Shown here in pieces: positions 4,182 through 20,314 of a stretch of DNA of 32,000 nucleotides. Under the pieces are notes generated by a model, which saw only the letters and a list, made by a program, of their open reading frames with translations, was not told the DNA's origin and searched no databases. A program made the position numbers and the translations under genes. The stretch is from Candidatus Omnitrophota bacterium (GTDB lineage: Bacteria > Omnitrophota > Gorgyraeia > 2-01-FULL-45-10), in NCBI GenBank assembly GCA_023818895.1, contig JAMWCX010000001.1:449789-481788 (forward strand), read 5' to 3'. Each line of letters starts with the position of its first letter. The stretch's first letter is position 1.

Positions 4182-5434
4182 CTAAGCACCTTCGGTATTG
4201 TCTCTCCCCTCACAAGGTCCTTGTAGGTCTCGTGCCTGCGCACGATATAAAATTTCTTGCCCATGGCCATAACCTCGGACGGGCGCGGTCTCGAATTATA
4301 ATTGCTCGACATAACAAAACCGTAAGCGCCCGCGCCCATGACCGCTAGAAGATCTCCGCGGCCCACCTGCGGCATAAGCCTGTCCTTACCCAGAAAATCG
4401 CCTGATTCGCATATTGGGCCAACCACATCTACCCTCTCGGCTGTGTCAGAACTATTATGAGGCACCTTCACAGGCACTATTTTATGATATGCCTCATAAA
4501 GGCTCGGCCTGATAAGATCGCTCATACCGCCGTCAACGATCACGAACTTCTTGCGCGGCGTGCGCTTCGTATATATCACCCTGGTAACAAGTATGCCGCT
4601 ATTTCCGGAAATAAATCTGCCGGGCTCCAGGATTACCTTGACCCCCATCTTCTTTATAAGAGGAATGATCTTTCGGGCAAAACTCTTTGCCGTTTGAGGG
4701 TTCTCCACAGAATAGATGATGCCCAGCCCGCCGCCGATATTGAAATATTCTATTTCTATTCTTTTCGAGTTAAGGAAATCTATGACCTTTCTGATCGCTT
4801 CCTGAAACGGAAGGGCATCCGTTATCTGGGAGCCGATATGAATGTGAACTCCCTTAATCCGAAGATTCGGATATCTCCACCTCATATTGAAAATTTTGTG
4901 AGCCGTCTCGAAATCTAACCCGAACTTCGTCTCGCCCTTACCGGTAGTTATGTAGTGATGCGTCTTCGGTATAACATCGGGATTGATCCTTATAGCGACG
5001 TTAACCTTCCTGCCGTATTTTTCGGCGCATCTCTGAATCTCCTCAAGTTCGTCCTCGGATTCCGCGTTAAAGAACAATATCCCAAAATCGATCGCTTCTA
5101 TTATCTCTTCGCGCTTCTTGCCGACACCGGCATATACCACCTTGCGCGGGTCAACGCCGGCGAGCCTTGCCCTATAAAGTTCGCCGCCGGAGACCACGTC
5201 AAGGCCGGCGCCGTTCTTAACGAGGGCGCGGACAACGGCAATATTGGAATTGGACTTCATGGAAAAACATATAAGCGGATTAATGGCACTGAAAGCTGTC
5301 TTGAGCTTCCGGTAATGGTCAATAAGAGTGCCGTAACTGTAGAGATAGAATGGCGTCGGCACCTTCTTCGCGATATCCGACACTTTTATGTCTTCGCAAT
5401 AAAGTTCGTTATCCCTAAACGTGAACTTGTGCAT
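4178..5434 (-). CDS. lysA: Diaminopimelate decarboxylase
   Basis: Carries the PLP-lysine block FSMKSNSN plus GGGLGI and CESGD motifs. The ORF track extends to 5467, but the ATG at 5434 (MHKFTFRDN...) has AGGAGA 4-5 nt upstream and sits 1 nt after the argH stop. The 5467 start would overlap argH by 32 nt. Confidence 0.93.
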   Translation of the reverse strand: MHKFTFRDNELYCEDIKVSDIAKKVPTPFYLYSYGTLIDHYRKLKTAFSAINPLICFSMKSNSNIAVVRALVKNGAGLDVVSGGELYRARLAGVDPRKVVYAGVGKKREEIIEAIDFGILFFNAESEDELEEIQRCAEKYGRKVNVAIRINPDVIPKTHHYITTGKGETKFGLDFETAHKIFNMRWRYPNLRIKGVHIHIGSQITDALPFQEAIRKVIDFLNSKRIEIEYFNIGGGLGIIYSVENPQTAKSFARKIIPLIKKMGVKVILEPGRFISGNSGILVTRVIYTKRTPRKKFVIVDGGMSDLIRPSLYEAYHKIVPVKVPHNSSDTAERVDVVGPICESGDFLGKDRLMPQVGRGDLLAVMGAGAYGFVMSSNYNSRPRPSEVMAMGKKFYIVRRHETYKDLVRGETIPKVLR

Positions 5435-17421: not shown

Positions 17422-17526
17422 AATTCCGGTTCTTTAAAAAACTTAACGCCTTGGGAAGTTGGCAGATTTAAACGATATTTTCAACATTTGATATTTAGTA
17501 TACTACAAATGCCTTTTTATTAAAGT

Positions 17527-17554
17527 AAAAAAATAGGGCCCATCAAGGATGGCC
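17527..17554 (-). terminator. Second (distal) intrinsic terminator after the PEP-CTERM gene
   Basis: Minus strand: GGCCAUC-CUU-GAUG(G)GCC, a 7-bp stem with one bulged G (17554-17536), followed by CUA-U7 (17533-17527). Confidence 0.65.
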
Positions 17555-17565
17555 TTAACTTCGCG

Positions 17566-17608
17566 CAAAATAAAATATCGCCCGGCGCATCATCGCGCCG
17601 CGCGATAT
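17566..17608 (-). terminator. First (proximal) intrinsic terminator after the PEP-CTERM gene
   Basis: Minus strand: AUAUCGCGCGGCGC-GAUGAU-GCGCCGGGCGAUAU, 13 bp with one G-G mismatch (17608-17575), followed by UUUAUUUUG. Confidence 0.8.
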
Positions 17609-17680
17609 TTACTATTCGCGCCCCGATCACATTGCATACACTCGCACGAATCGCCTCGCGTCAATTCGTGCACATTCGCG

Positions 17681-18766
17681 TTAAACCTTTATCCTAATCC
17701 TCCTATACCCTATCGCAATAACCGCTACCAAAATCCCCACAACCGTGGCCGGCTCAGGGACGCCTCCACCGCTCAGAGGGCCGCCCATGCCGCTTCCGAG
17801 CTTTATATAATATCCAACATTCTCGTCAAAATAGGTGTCACCTACCTTCATACCGGAAGGCACCCAGTCGGGGTCAGTGGCGTAGTAGTTCCATGTAAAA
17901 CCACCTATCTCGACACCGGATTGCTGGCCGCTGTAGGCGGTGTAGAGCTGCGACATATCATCCGTATCGAAGCTCATATCATTGAGCAGAAATTCAAAGG
18001 CTTCCACGCCGAAGTTCCTCACTTGCGTGATCTCGGCTGAGGTAAGCTGCATCTCCCAGAGGGCCATATCGTCCATAGGTTGGTAGAATGGGTAGGGATA
18101 ATAATTACTACCATCTATGCCCATTACGCCGCCAATATAAAAAAACGGGGTAGAGGCGTCCGGAGGATCCCAATACCCTACAAAATTCGTAGAGTATGAC
18201 GAACTACCATTATATACCGTTACCGTTCCACTGCTCACATAATGCCATGTGTCAAAAACCGTATTCCAGGTCACCGCAATATGGGACCACACATTCAGAG
18301 GTACGGTCCCTATATTCTTATAGTACTGAGTATCATTTCCCATGCAGGCATAAAGGTTGGCTATCGAAGAGTCATTATATTCATTCCAAATTGAGTTACT
18401 TCCGTGAGTCTCATCATATACGCCAAAAATCCCAAGAGAATACGTGTTTTGAAGGTTTGGCTTAACCCATATTGTTATAGTGCCGCTCATCGGCGCAGGA
18501 TCCATGGCCTGGCTTATGCTGCTCGGGATGAGGGCATTACCGAATTTGCCTGGCGTCCAACTCGCAGCCCCTAATGACGCGTCGGTACCTTTAGAGGCAT
18601 ACGCCGTGGTTCCGCTTGTCTCATCGAATTTCCAATAATCGCGCAGGGAGCTTTCGTATGAAGCGAAAGAGGGCGGGGCGACGCCCGCGATCACGATACA
18701 TATGATTATGCCTATAAATATTTTCGTCCTCATCGCCCTCACCCCTCTCTGCGGTTTTATATTCAT
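17681..18766 (-). CDS. Secreted LamG (concanavalin-A-like lectin/glucanase fold) domain protein with a C-terminal PEP-CTERM sorting signal
   Basis: N-terminal signal peptide (MRTKIFIGIIICIVIAGVAPPSFA|SYE). LamG_3-like start (YWKFDETSGTTAYASKG...WTPGKFGNAL) and end (MDDMALWEMQLTSAEI). The C-terminus GGVPEPATVVGILVAVIAIGYRRIRIKV shows a VPEP motif, a TM helix and a basic tail, which together form a PEP-CTERM signal. The start is ambiguous: ATG at 18766 (GGGGAG 8 nt upstream) or ATG at 18733 (GAGGGG 8 nt upstream). Confidence 0.8.
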   Translation of the reverse strand: MNIKPQRGVRAMRTKIFIGIIICIVIAGVAPPSFASYESSLRDYWKFDETSGTTAYASKGTDASLGAASWTPGKFGNALIPSSISQAMDPAPMSGTITIWVKPNLQNTYSLGIFGVYDETHGSNSIWNEYNDSSIANLYACMGNDTQYYKNIGTVPLNVWSHIAVTWNTVFDTWHYVSSGTVTVYNGSSSYSTNFVGYWDPPDASTPFFYIGGVMGIDGSNYYPYPFYQPMDDMALWEMQLTSAEITQVRNFGVEAFEFLLNDMSFDTDDMSQLYTAYSGQQSGVEIGGFTWNYYATDPDWVPSGMKVGDTYFDENVGYYIKLGSGMGGPLSGGGVPEPATVVGILVAVIAIGYRRIRIKV

Positions 18767-18780
18767 TTTGGTGTCTCCCC

Positions 18781-18817
18781 CAACAAAAATCCCGACCTCC
18801 TACTCGGAGATCGGGAC
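18781..18817 (-). terminator. Intrinsic terminator inside the 5' leader of the PEP-CTERM gene (candidate riboswitch expression platform)
   Basis: Minus strand: GUCCCGAUCUCC-GAGUA-GGAGGUCGGGAU, 12 bp including two G-U pairs (18817-18789), followed by UUUUGUUG (18788-18781). It lies 15 nt (ATG 18766) or 48 nt (ATG 18733) upstream of the candidate start codons. Confidence 0.8.
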
Positions 18818-18987
18818 GCGTTCTCTCGACGAGAACAAGCTTTATGTTAGCTCTAAACGGCAACTGGCTACCCTGCTTTCGCGAGGGCCCTGTAGCTTTG
18901 CTACGGCCTGAGTCTTCGTCAGGCCGCAGTCCCTTTAGGGACGGCCCATCCTTTCGGATGGTGTGCGATTAATATTTCTCTTCTTAT
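18781..18987 (-). ncRNA. Structured 5' leader, a candidate riboswitch (class unresolved; partial resemblance to c-di-GMP-I/GEMM-I)
   Basis: Consecutive minus-strand hairpins: CCAUCC-GAAA-GGAUGG (18961-18946); GUCCC-UAAA-GGGAC (18942-18929); CGGCCUGA-CGAAGAC-UCAGGCCG (18926-18904); GUAGC-AAA-GCUAC (18904-18892); CCCU(C)GC-GAAA-GCAGGG (18887-18871); GAGCU-AACAUAA-AGCUU (18853-18837); GUUCUC-GUCGA-GAGAAC (18836-18820); then the terminator. The GNRA (GAAA) loops exist only on the minus-strand reading, which sets the orientation. GGGACUGCG (18933-18925) can alternatively pair with CGCGUCCC (18820-18813) at the base of the terminator. Confidence 0.55.
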
Positions 18988-18993
18988 ACTTCT

Positions 18994-19012
18994 ATTATAA
19001 GTCTACCTTATA
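18994..19012 (-). promoter_or_regulatory. Candidate -10 boxes for the leader/PEP-CTERM transcript
   Basis: Minus strand has TATAAT (18999-18994) and TATAAG (19012-19007) in an AT-rich stretch just upstream of the structured region. The -35 elements are poor (best is TTAAGC-N18-TATAAG), so confidence is low. Confidence 0.3.
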
Positions 19013-19201
19013 TTAATAAAACGACAAGGTGCTTAATCTACTTTTTGTGGACAGATTTCTACCTTTTTTCGTCTTAAAAAAAGACGGTTTTAGTAGCAAT
19101 TAGACAAAGGAATAACTTTTTGCGGTAGGCTAACGAACCGAAACAAAACGTTGGATTAAATTCAAATCTTACAGGATAGTAAACGGCTACTTAAAAGCTC
19201 C

Positions 19202-20314
19202 CTAATGGTGGAATAATCTCAGTATATTTTCAAATATCCCAAATTTCATAATGTCGCTGTAGAATATGAAAACAGTTAGTATCACCAAAAAGGTGATACC
19301 TATATTTGTTATTATCTCCTGCGCCTTGAGCGACAGCGGCCGCCCCCTCAGCTTCTCGAGCGCCAGGAATATCATGTGGCCTCCGTCGAGGACTGGCAGC
19401 GGCAGCACATTGAAAATCGCAAGAGATGCGCTTAATATCCCCATAAGATGAAAGATATAGACCAAGCCGAGTTTAGCGGCCTGACCTGTTATAACGAACA
19501 TCCCTATCGGCCCCGTCATTGACTCTTTAAGAGAAAGCCTGCCTGTAATTATTGACCAGAGCGCCTTGTAAGTTACACCAGTAAGCTGAAAAAGCTTTTT
19601 TGCGCCCATGTAAAACGCCTGGAAAAAACCGTAGCGCACCTTCTCGATATTCTGAGATGGTGTCACCCCGATCTGGGCTATCCTGACATCATTGCCAAAA
19701 ATATCTTTGGCTTTGCGCACCTTGGGCGTTATGGTCATGTCAAAAACTTTTCCACCGCGCTCAATCGTAATAGCAATATCGCCTTCTGTACGCTTGAATA
19801 TAGCCTCCGTCATCTCTTCCCAGTACTTTACGACTTTGCCATCCACAGAAACTATTTTATCTCCCGGCCGCATACCCATGCGCTCGGCCGGATAGTCCTT
19901 TATAAGACCACCCACCTCGGTCGTTAAGGTGGGACTGCCAAACATGAATATAATGGAAAATATGATAAAAGCGAGAAGATAGTTAAGAAAAGGGCCGGCA
20001 AAAATTATTTTAAACCTGTCACCGACACTTCTGGATAGAAACTCCCACTTCTGGTGCGTCAGTTTTTCCCACGGTTCATCTCCCGTCATCTTCACGTAGC
20101 CGCCAAGCGGTATAGCCGAGATTAAGTATTCGGTTTCCCCCTTCTTGAGGGACGCTATTTTAGGTCCGAAGCCGAAAGAGAATTTCTCGACGCGCACGCC
20201 CAGAATCTTGGCCACGATGAAATGGCCGAATTCGTGCACGAGAACAAGAACGCTCAACACGGCAAGAAATGATATTAAAGACAACAAAGCGACCTTGCCT
20301 CCTCTCTTGCCCAT
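19202..20314 (-). CDS. rseP: RIP (site-2) zinc metalloprotease with PDZ domain
   Basis: Has HEFGHF in TM1, a central PDZ region (GDKIVSVDG), and the NVLPLPVLDGGH motif. The ATG at 20314 has no Shine-Dalgarno sequence and overlaps dxr by 40 nt. A TTG at 20287 (LLSLISF...) has GGAGG 9 nt upstream and may be the true start. Confidence 0.9.
   Translation of the reverse strand: MGKRGGKVALLSLISFLAVLSVLVLVHEFGHFIVAKILGVRVEKFSFGFGPKIASLKKGETEYLISAIPLGGYVKMTGDEPWEKLTHQKWEFLSRSVGDRFKIIFAGPFLNYLLAFIIFSIIFMFGSPTLTTEVGGLIKDYPAERMGMRPGDKIVSVDGKVVKYWEEMTEAIFKRTEGDIAITIERGGKVFDMTITPKVRKAKDIFGNDVRIAQIGVTPSQNIEKVRYGFFQAFYMGAKKLFQLTGVTYKALWSIITGRLSLKESMTGPIGMFVITGQAAKLGLVYIFHLMGILSASLAIFNVLPLPVLDGGHMIFLALEKLRGRPLSLKAQEIITNIGITFLVILTVFIFYSDIMKFGIFENILRLFHH

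Follow-up and report, generated by a model that had tools for sequence, protein, structure and literature searches.

What RNA occupies the region between rseP and a gene for a secreted LamG/PEP-CTERM protein, and might it control that gene? The window, that is, the whole 32,000-nt stretch of DNA that was analyzed, carries on its minus strand a structured leader (18980-18781) that ends in a 12-bp intrinsic terminator ahead of the LamG/PEP-CTERM gene (17681..18766, minus strand), the gene presumed to be regulated. The product is a secreted Laminin_G_3 protein with a C-terminal PEP-CTERM sorting signal, which matched PF13385 (Laminin_G_3) in Pfam with E = 5e-10 and TIGR02595 (PEP-CTERM) in NCBIfam with 17.7 bits against a cut-off of 16. 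The upstream neighbor, rseP, matched Peptidase_M50 and PDZ. A Shine-Dalgarno-like GGGGGAG lies ahead of the LamG/PEP-CTERM gene (18781-18775, minus strand), and the ORF list gives two candidate start codons, 18766 and 18733 (minus strand), which are 15 and 48 nt past the U tract of the terminator, the same distances as those given in the first-pass annotation of this DNA.

The folding of the region was analyzed with RNAfold. The minimum free energy (MFE) of 19012-18767 (minus strand) was -96.1 kcal/mol, in comparison with -67.0 +/- 4.5 kcal/mol for 200 dinucleotide shuffles (z = -6.4), and none of the 200 shuffles folded as well as the leader. The terminator scan placed an intrinsic terminator at 18817-18781 (minus strand), with a 12-bp stem GUCCCGAUCUCC-GAGUA-GGAGGUCGGGAU followed by UUUUUGUUG. 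The stem (18817-18789, minus strand) has 7 GC pairs, precedes TTTTTGTTG, and is strong and self-contained (-24.6 kcal/mol); six terminator-like sites were found in the scanned region against 0.8 expected. The earlier description of a riboswitch-type leader with a built-in terminator was borne out by these data, while two of its details stood only in part. The MFE structure is a series of local hairpins, two of which have GAAA caps, and includes spacer hairpin 1 (GAGCU-AACAUAA-AGCUU, 18853-18837, minus strand) and spacer hairpin 2 (GUUCUC-GUCGA-GAGAAC, 18836-18820, minus strand), but of the seven hairpins that had been counted, GUAGC-AAA-GCUAC is an MFE alternative only. This hairpin is incompatible with the fold that has comparative support, since its arms are part of two of the helices described below, hpB and P3. 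The reported -10-like boxes came down to a single TATAAT (18999-18994) whose -35 is poor, and the sigma-70 scan of the minus strand from 19012 to 18980 found no promoter.

The family of the RNA was investigated using Rfam, a check that had been proposed with the annotation. No Rfam family reached its gathering score in the whole 32,000-nt window, but RF01051 (c-di-GMP-I) matched the 3' half of the aptamer (18918-18856) below threshold, with 25.4 bits and E = 0.0069 in a 511-nt search (gathering score 35). Model positions 12-35 of RF03167 (c-di-GMP-I-GGC) matched P2 (18965-18942) with 18.4 bits in Rfam E-value mode. The two sub-threshold matches stand in the correct order, P2 and then the 3' half of GEMM-I, and they show that the resemblances to the V. 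cholerae Vc2 GEMM-I aptamer, which the first-pass annotation had pointed out, were real. A covariance model (R1) was also built from 35 aptamers with the hpA/hpB insertion described below, with the leader left out. R1 gave a single match in the window, at full length (model positions 1-138 of 138), with 60.1 bits and E = 6.3e-14, and 0 matches in 625 kb of control loci. The R1 scores of members outside the training set were 42-94 bits, a range that includes the score of the leader. Of the 29 columns with a conservation of 90% or more, the leader agreed with 27, among them A47, C92, and G21-C46, and its primary-sequence homology to three metagenomic aptamers (L180, L185, and L131) was clear along the entire aptamer. 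The aptamer portion (18980-18855, minus strand) very probably belongs to the GEMM-I (c-di-GMP-I) family, and among the options left by the first-pass annotation the R1 match upholds a divergent GEMM-I.

All parts of the aptamer are on the minus strand. The J1/2 strand is UUAAUC (18967..18972), where the family consensus is AUAAAG or UAAGGG. P2, the hairpin GCACACC-AUCC-GAAA-GGAU-GGGCCG (18942..18966), was aligned by the local RF03167 match and by R1; it is made up of G21 and C22, a 3-nt internal loop, a 6-bp stem, and a GAAA tetraloop, and C22 pairs with G45 (18942). The segment 18966-18942, read as GC-ACA-CCAUCC-GAAA-GGAUGG-GC-CG, has the design of the GEMM-I 5' hairpin, namely a 2-bp stem, a 3-nt internal loop, a 6-bp stem, and a GNRA loop (PMC1950547), but its outer G-C pair, although retained, spans an insertion. 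The first inserted hairpin, hpA (UCCC-UAAA-GGGA, 18930..18941), begins immediately after G45, and the second, hpB (CUGCGGCCUGA-CGAAGAC-UCAGGCCGUAG, 11 bp, 18901..18929), is flush with both hpA and C46. Folded alone, the insertion UCCCUAAAGGGA|CUGCGGCCUGACGAAGACUCAGGCCGUAG gave ((((....))))(((((((((((.......))))))))))), that is, two flush hairpins (z = -5.8). C46 (18900) pairs with G21 across the junction and is followed by the AAA linker J2/3 (A47 = 18899) and the start of P3 (18895..18900); this CAAAGC (18900-18895) contains the linker present in 320 of 322 GEMM examples (PMC1950547). P3 (AGCUACAGGGCCCUCGCGAAAGCAGGGUAGCCAGUU, 18862..18897), which was aligned by RF01051 and R1, is short and GAAA-capped, and the 3' junction strand GCCGUUU (18855..18861) contains, at 18860, the C equivalent to C92. 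RF01051 aligned P3 and the 3' ..UGCCG as AGCC-AGUUGCCG. All five helices have standard pairs, including 6 of 6 in P2, 4-5 bp in hpA, and 11 bp with one G-U in hpB.

In comparison with RF01051 and Vc2, the leader has the same P2 (2-bp stem, internal loop, 6-bp stem, GAAA), the same AAA linker with A47, the same P3 base AGC../..GCCAGUUGCC, and the same C92-equivalent C, and it too lies in the 5' UTR of a cell-surface gene with an intrinsic terminator after the aptamer. It differs by a 41-nt two-hairpin insertion that splits the two basal P2 pairs, by C in place of G20, by the lack of P1 and of a tetraloop receptor, and by a score (25.4 bits) lower than 35. The first-pass annotation had found no convincing closing P1, and its absence is real: UA stands opposite CG in the leader. 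The CG:CG pairs of P1 are formed in just 75% of aptamers family-wide; they are absent too in L180, L185, and L131, and P1 is missing also in relatives with G20. A P3 tetraloop receptor is usual, not universal, when the P2 loop is GAAA. The P3 of the leader is a nearly continuous helix without the receptor internal loop despite the GAAA loop of P2, whereas L129 and L161 have the 11-nt receptor, CCUAAG..UAUGG, at the corresponding site. The receptor occurs in only about half of GEMM RNAs (PMC1950547).

The two extra hairpins, which had stood in the way of a GEMM-I assignment, proved to be the signature of a subclass. A metagenome scan with one exact pattern, limited to 120 loci, found at least about 45 distinct metagenomic GEMM-I aptamers with the layout P2-hpA-hpB-CAAAGC-P3; the same pattern scan over viral contigs gave no match. 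Two hairpins placed flush between G45 and C46, at the base of P2 and without linker nucleotides, are a recurrent feature that defines a GEMM-I subclass. As the insertion is flush, P2, hpA, hpB, and G21-C46 meet in a perfect four-way junction, and this junction adjoins the ligand pocket. The four-way-junction layout of the leader is identical to that of the metagenomic aptamers L154, L180, L185, L131, L191, and L197, although these have G (or A) at position 20. GCACACC..GGGCCG of the leader is common to L191 and L197, and its P3 base and 3' strand AGCCAGUUGCCGU are common to L180 and L185. The UCCC..GGGA of hpA was also found in 11 aptamers (L083, L117, L151, L154, L156, L161, L166, L174, L187, L191, and L197), and the hpB base CUGC..GUAG in L154. 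Most metagenomic hpA/hpB relatives have longer P3 arms than the leader, and several have the 11-nt tetraloop receptor.

Covariation was counted after re-alignment with the covariance model and by alignment-free folding, and the MAFFT alignment was set aside for these counts because hpA was misaligned in it. In the alignment 90% of cells were paired, in comparison with 66% in shuffles, and none of 500 shuffles was as high; in slid-control alignments 28-46% were paired. Compensatory changes were found in all 7 pairs of hpA (90.7% of cells paired) and in 8 of the 9 pairs of hpB, while P2 was 99% paired and had 4 covarying pairs, family-wide. The G21-C46 column pair was GC in 51 of 52 rows, and GCAAAGC was invariant in alignment A1. 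Alignment-free folding gave two flush hairpins for 42 of 46 insertions, against 4.4% of shuffles. RNAalifold on the MAFFT alignment recovered P2, P3, and part of hpB. Its suggestion that G21 pairs with the first inserted nucleotide was rejected, since the first inserted nucleotide covaries with the 3'-terminal one of hpA (UA 32, CG 10, GC 3).

A sizeable, covariation-supported subclass of a well-studied riboswitch family is thus absent from the Rfam consensus, and a limited literature search found no published description of the hpA/hpB insertion or of C20 variants. The insertion splits two base pairs that are stacked directly on the ligand pocket, which raises the question of how a high-affinity pocket tolerates the added architecture. 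Among 20 tested loci with insertion-type aptamers, 12 reached the RF01051 gathering score, in alignments that treated the two extra hairpins as an unaligned insert, so that this score is insensitive to the hpA/hpB subclass. As the leader was missed as well, c-di-GMP regulons are under-annotated in uncultured phyla, for example Omnitrophota.

The origin of the leader was examined in related genomes. In all Omnitrophota relatives, among the 80 rseP loci fetched, rseP adjoins ispG and the leader and the LamG gene are absent; no homologue of the leader was found in the rseP loci of relatives by blastn, nhmmer, or the covariance model. The leader and the LamG/PEP-CTERM gene are a lineage-specific insertion into the dxr-rseP-ispG operon, and the leader consequently has no within-lineage conservation signal. 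The LamG protein had only 4 homologues among 5.8e9 proteins, two of which are paralogues from the source genome, and the upstream region of one homologue locus (L001) contained no such motif. The proposed covariation check on upstream regions of LamG homologues therefore gave no homologous leader, there or at the rseP loci, and it was the metagenomic aptamers that covaried. An identical leader, with the same base at position 20, is present in a second assembly (GCA_023818765.1).

G20 of GEMM-I contacts the Hoogsteen edge of the first ligand base and is A in cGAMP-sensing members; A20 retunes GEMM-Ib to 3'3'-cGAMP, and A47 intercalates between the ligand bases. The leader has neither G nor A at this position but C (18967, minus strand). 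G20 reads G-alpha of c-di-GMP and C92 forms a Watson-Crick pair with G-beta (PMC6140456), and a G-to-A change at position 20, which reads one ligand base, switches specificity (PMC6140456; PMC9481103). In column 14 of alignment A2, 49 rows had G, 4 had A, and the leader alone had C; C20 together with the neighboring U occurred in no other of the 54 aligned rows. At position 20, about 100 non-redundant GEMM-I aptamers listed had G (85), A (11), C (1), or U (1), and C20 recurred in an otherwise canonical aptamer (L101/L181). The C92 column (346) of A2 was C in 53 of 54 rows and in the leader, and column 347 was C in 52 of 54. GEMM-Ib (3'3'-cGAMP), c-di-GMP-I-GGC, and c-di-GMP-I-UAU (RF03167, RF03168) share the scaffold and carry substitutions at positions 20, 47, and 92; their triplets are A-A-C, G-G-C, and U-A-U, in comparison with C-A-C in the leader. 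To our knowledge, which here includes a limited set of papers, C-A-C (20/47/92) has not been described as a variant. By analogy with protonated A20, a protonated C20 could still recognize guanine by its Hoogsteen edge. Ligand specificity is set at position 20, and the naturally occurring C is a ready candidate for specificity studies.

We also analyzed the coupling between the aptamer and the terminator, for which the first-pass annotation had proposed the standard layout of mutually exclusive anti-terminator and terminator. The complementarity that it cited exists: GGGACUGCG (18933-18925) can pair with CGCGUCCC (18820-18813) over 8 bp with one bulge. However, a fold forced to contain this pairing was about 10.5 kcal/mol less stable than the unconstrained one, even at the stage when the 3' arm of the terminator has yet to be made, and shuffles of the terminator 5' arm paired with the aptamer at least as well in 521 of 1000 cases. 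On the grounds of the energy cost and the shuffle result, GGGACUGCG:CGCGUCCC was rejected as evidence of an anti-terminator, and the proposed standard layout is not supported by it; complementarity beyond chance between aptamer segments and the terminator was not found in 1000 shuffles. Two other switching helices, P3 distal with spacer hairpin 2 and the P3 3' strand with spacer hairpin 1, were within the shuffle range of the terminator arm, had no link to the terminator, and were rejected. In contrast, a significant 17-bp anti-terminator is present in L180, where the 3' strand of P2 can pair with the terminator (-23.4 kcal/mol, 6 of 1000 shuffles); the leader has no counterpart. The leader also departs from the classical ON-switch arrangement (PMC1950547) in that its terminator and P3 do not overlap. 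Aptamer, small hairpin, and separate terminator follow one another in this order in the nearest relatives too, L180, L185, and L131, in which a small hairpin GUGG..CCAC directly follows ..UGCCG, as the spacer hairpins do in the leader. Secondary structure alone predicts termination as the default outcome.

These results bear on whether the aptamer is still functional and what it would recognize. If it had arrived with the LamG cassette and then decayed, the leader would now serve only as a structured 5' UTR whose terminator is constitutive and leaky. The cassette is indeed a lineage-specific insertion, C20 co-occurs with a missing P1 and a missing tetraloop receptor, the Rfam score is under threshold, the terminator is strong and self-contained (-24.6 kcal/mol), and its complementarity to the aptamer is not significant. 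However, stem-breaking changes are expected of a relic, and the leader retains standard pairs in all five helices and the conserved nucleotides at 27 of 29 highly conserved columns, A47, C92, and G21-C46 among them; relatives with G20 lack P1 as well, and about half of GEMM-I aptamers have no receptor (PMC1950547). We consider such decay unlikely. That the RNA belongs to an unrelated or undescribed class with coincidental GEMM-like segments, as the first-pass annotation had allowed, agrees with the absence of any Rfam family at gathering score, but it is scarcely credible in view of the 60-bit full-length match to a model made of other GEMM-I aptamers only, the whole-aptamer homology to L180, L185, and L131, and the 27 of 29 matching columns. 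Family-level homology effectively excludes this option.

The other doubt concerns the ligand. A functional GEMM-I aptamer in which C20, together with U19, retunes recognition to a ligand other than c-di-GMP, such as another cyclic dinucleotide, would fit the role of position 20 in reading the ligand base and the switch of specificity from G to A (PMC6140456; PMC9481103), the rare yet recurrent C20 in the otherwise canonical L101/L181, and the intact state of all other conserved positions in the leader. In contrast, the two C20 cases listed are independent and mutually unrelated, with no C20 clade or gene association visible, and a protonated C might still pair with the Hoogsteen edge of G; we regard this variant as rather improbable. 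There is a slim chance that either the C20/U19 pocket recognizes another ligand (a pyrimidine-containing or unusual cyclic dinucleotide) or the hpA/hpB junction adds a second regulatory input, for instance when a protein or a further ligand docks on the inserted arms. If so, the leader would found a new GEMM-I class, of specificity or of architecture, which would control PEP-CTERM surface proteins in Omnitrophota.

The reading that we prefer is a divergent GEMM-I aptamer that would bind c-di-GMP, modulate the terminator, and set LamG/PEP-CTERM expression, and as a whole we consider it likely; ligand-responsive switching by the leader is reasonably probable. The leader RNA would bind c-di-GMP or, because the G20 position is C, possibly a closely related cyclic dinucleotide. 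Binding would alter the frequency with which RNA polymerase terminates at the self-contained terminator (18817-18781), and the altered termination would set the expression of the LamG/PEP-CTERM surface protein. The leader is thereby predicted to tie cyclic-dinucleotide signaling to a PEP-CTERM/exosortase-type surface protein in a candidate phylum without cultured genetics. Other members of the subclass precede genes for pilins, Flp pilin, PilM/N, PorV-like, and PATR-repeat proteins, which fits the link to surface and biofilm genes suggested in the first-pass annotation.

The 435-nt gap between rseP (19202-20314, minus strand; Peptidase_M50 and PDZ) and the LamG/PEP-CTERM gene (17681-18766, minus strand; Laminin_G_3, and TIGR02595 PEP-CTERM at 17.7 bits, cut-off 16) held a GC-rich structured block with AT-rich flanks. 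RNAfold gave -96.1 kcal/mol for 19012-18767 (-), against -67.0 +/- 4.5 kcal/mol in shuffles (z = -6.4). The terminator scan found a self-contained intrinsic terminator whose 12-bp stem (18817-18789, -) precedes UUUUUGUUG, about 35 nt 3' of the aptamer described below, with two small hairpins between them; 3' of the terminator lie a Shine-Dalgarno-like GGGGGAG and candidate start codons at 18766 and 18733. The first-pass annotation had described this arrangement accurately. Another hairpin, just 3' of rseP (19069-19087), was terminator-like on the plus strand only, where there is no gene; read on the rseP strand, it is followed by an A-run, so transcription from rseP may or may not continue into the leader.

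Across the whole window, no Rfam match attained the gathering score of its family. In E-value mode over 18700-19210, two sub-threshold matches stood in the correct order: 18965-18942 (-) corresponded to the P2 hairpin of c-di-GMP-I-GGC (model positions 12-35; 18.4 bits), and 18918-18856 (-) matched c-di-GMP-I with P2 deleted (25.4 bits, E = 0.0069; gathering score 35). With the intervening 41 nt excised, GGGCCG would run directly into CAAAGCUAC; at this point the family consensus reads GGGACG-CAAAGCC.

JGI metagenome contigs were scanned with the pattern GCAMACC-N4-GNRA-N4-GGGNCG-N{22,52}-GCAAAGC, which combines GEMM-I P2, an insertion and the J2/3 motif. At least 120 loci matched, and about half of the matches listed were canonical GEMM-I aptamers with a second GCAAAGC by chance. 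At least about 45 distinct sequences had exactly the layout of the window: GGGNCG, two inserted hairpins (hpA and hpB), then CAAAGC-P3 and UGCCG. In these the junction was flush, hpA following G45 (Vc2 numbering), hpB following hpA, and C46 following hpB, with no gaps. The hpA of the window (UCCC-loop-GGGA) was common to many members; its hpB base (CUGC..GUAG) recurred in comparison locus L154, and its P3 base and 3' strand in L180, L185, and L131. P2, hpA, hpB and the G21-C46 pair, which have no linker nucleotides between them, form a perfect four-way junction; P2 could remain stacked on G21-C46 as in Vc2 and hpA could stack on hpB, which would leave the pocket intact. RF01051 reached its gathering score in 12 of 20 tested insertion-type loci (35.4-58.7 bits), and in these Rfam left hpA and hpB as an unaligned insert; the four-way-junction type is therefore a subclass within the family, missing from its consensus structure. 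The insertion-type aptamers of the other eight (L083, L084, L086, L094, L115, L135, L151, and L156) did not reach that score, so the curated threshold under-detects the subclass. The subclass has no Rfam model, and no description of it was found in the literature searched. Two GEMM-I aptamers per contig were seen in L083, L174, L129, L186, L144/L201, L098, and L145, some in tandem and some about 1-4 kb apart, and on some of these contigs both insertion-type and canonical aptamers occur.

The inserted fold was also examined by alignment-free MFE folding. In 42 of 46 distinct insertions, against 102 of 2300 shuffles, the fold consisted of two adjacent top-level hairpins and left no more than 2 top-level nucleotides unpaired, and the insertion in the window gave a perfectly flush two-hairpin fold (z = -5.8). 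On the covariance model (CM) alignment of 54 hits, which is itself fitted to the structure, 90.0% of cells held standard pairs versus 66.2% when shuffled (0/500 shuffles as high) and 28-46% in slid controls, with compensatory changes in 7/7 pairs of hpA and 8/9 pairs of hpB. The first and last nucleotides of hpA were UA in 32 rows, CG in 10 and GC in 3, and G21-C46 across the junction was GC in 51/52 rows. As a check, RNAalifold on a structure-blind MAFFT alignment independently recovered P2, P3 and five pairs of hpB, showing many compensatory changes.

A model of 138 positions and 41 pairs (R1), built from 35 MAFFT-aligned members with the window excluded, gave a single full-length match in the 32-kb window, at 18980-18852 (-) (60.1 bits, E = 6.3e-14). 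R1 scored 42-94 bits on non-training subclass members and at most 44 bits on canonical aptamers lacking the insertion, and had no match in 625 kb of unrelated loci. Of the 29 columns with at least 90% conservation across 47 other members, 27 were matched by the window, the two mismatches being A24 to C and G20 to C. These results bear out the earlier lead to GEMM-I, and we regard it as very likely that the leader element is a divergent member of the c-di-GMP-I riboswitch family, of the four-way-junction subclass. The A24 to C change was common to the window, L112, L191, and L197, together with a change at position 43: in these the P2 internal loop (18962 and 18944 in the window) reads GCACACC..GGGCCG (the form of the window, L191, and L197) or GGGUCG, for GCAAACC..GGGACG. 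The paired changes suggest a covarying, non-canonical A24/A43 contact.

Position 20 (18967) is a rare C in the window. The CM alignment column held G 49, A 4, and C 1 (the window), and in a non-redundant set of about 100 GEMM-I aptamers from the fetched loci the counts were G 85, A 11, C 1, and U 1. C92 pairs with G-beta of the ligand, and A20 leads to cGAMP recognition (PMC6140456). The nucleotide beside position 20 is U in the window, not A or G. Besides the window, the only natural C20 among the roughly 100 aptamers examined was in L101/L181 (L101 8640-8741, +), where ACAAAC followed by GCAAACC stands in an otherwise canonical GEMM-I aptamer (RF03167, 51.8 bits). An aptamer with altered ligand specificity is improbable in our estimate. 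The short CG:CG P1 was absent from the window, and also from L180, L185, and L131, in which a small GUGG..CCAC hairpin directly follows UGCCG (about 4620-4645, 2110-2132 and 655-678, all minus strand); its counterpart in the window is GAGCU..AGCUU at 18837-18853 (-). In the clade closest to the window, it may stand in for P1 by stacking. P3 in the window is short and GAAA-capped and lacks the 11-nt tetraloop receptor, whereas L129 and L161 have it; only about half of GEMM RNAs carry this receptor (PMC1950547). The insertion, C20 with its U neighbour, the missing P1 and the short receptor-less P3 account for the sub-threshold Rfam score. A non-switching relic is unlikely, though slightly less so than altered specificity, and the element probably still works as a cyclic-dinucleotide-responsive switch.

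The proposed anti-terminator, 18933-18925 with 18820-18813, did give the best complementarity to the terminator foot, but energies and shuffles did not support a switching role. Enforcing it cost 10.5 kcal/mol in the transcript to the terminator loop (-59.2 vs -69.7 kcal/mol for the free fold) and 14.4 kcal/mol in the full leader, and in 521/1000 cases a shuffled terminator 5' arm equalled or exceeded the real one in pairing with the aptamer. The nearest-neighbour MFE structure preferred a GUAGC-AAA-GCUAC hairpin that buries A47, with an advantage of 12.7 kcal/mol over the aptamer fold; this hairpin could be the ligand-free state. A path from it to the terminator was sought in the window leader and none was found. 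Switching logic was heterogeneous among relatives. The P3 3' strand doubles as the terminator 5' arm in L166, L112, L113, and L108 (ON type), and in L193 and L122 the P3 3' strand pairs with the terminator as an anti-terminator of about -23.7 kcal/mol (OFF type). A predicted OFF-type anti-terminator in L180 (4500-4800, -) uses the aptamer centre, not P3 or P1: its 17 bp (-23.4 kcal/mol; 6/1000 shuffles) would pair ACGUCCCAACCUCAUUUCGG, the 5' arm of the terminator, with the P2 loop, the P2 3' arm and GGGACGU.

The genes downstream of subclass members include those for prepilin-type N-methyl pilins (L129, L169, and L174), a Flp pilin (L119), PilM/PilN (L178), PorV-like outer-membrane proteins (L166 and L187) and a PATR-repeat protein (L185). 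They show the "environment, membrane, motility" association classical for GEMM (PMC1950547), with which a secreted LamG/PEP-CTERM protein agrees.

The gene order dxr-rseP-ispG-proS was found in more than 20 Omnitrophota genomes. Since only 5-50 nt separate the rseP stop from the ispG start in these relatives, the leader and LamG/PEP-CTERM gene (about 1.78 kb, 17422-19201), lying inside an operon contiguous elsewhere, are a lineage-specific insertion. No leader homologue was found in Omnitrophota rseP-ispG loci by blastn, nhmmer or CM. The LamG protein had four relatives only among 5.8e9 proteins, and the motif was absent from the one upstream region examined among them. An identical leader occurs in a second assembly, GCA_023818765.1, although both assemblies may come from one sample. 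A likely terminator (17575-17630, -) lies 3' of the LamG stop codon, where UAUUUUG comes after a GC-rich hairpin (AAAUAUCGCGCGGCGC..GCGCCGGGCGAUAUUU), and an AT-rich stretch with TTTACT..TATACT then lies 5' of ispG (17480-17540, -). From these sequence features, the insertion appears to carry a putative terminator of its own and a putative new ispG promoter.
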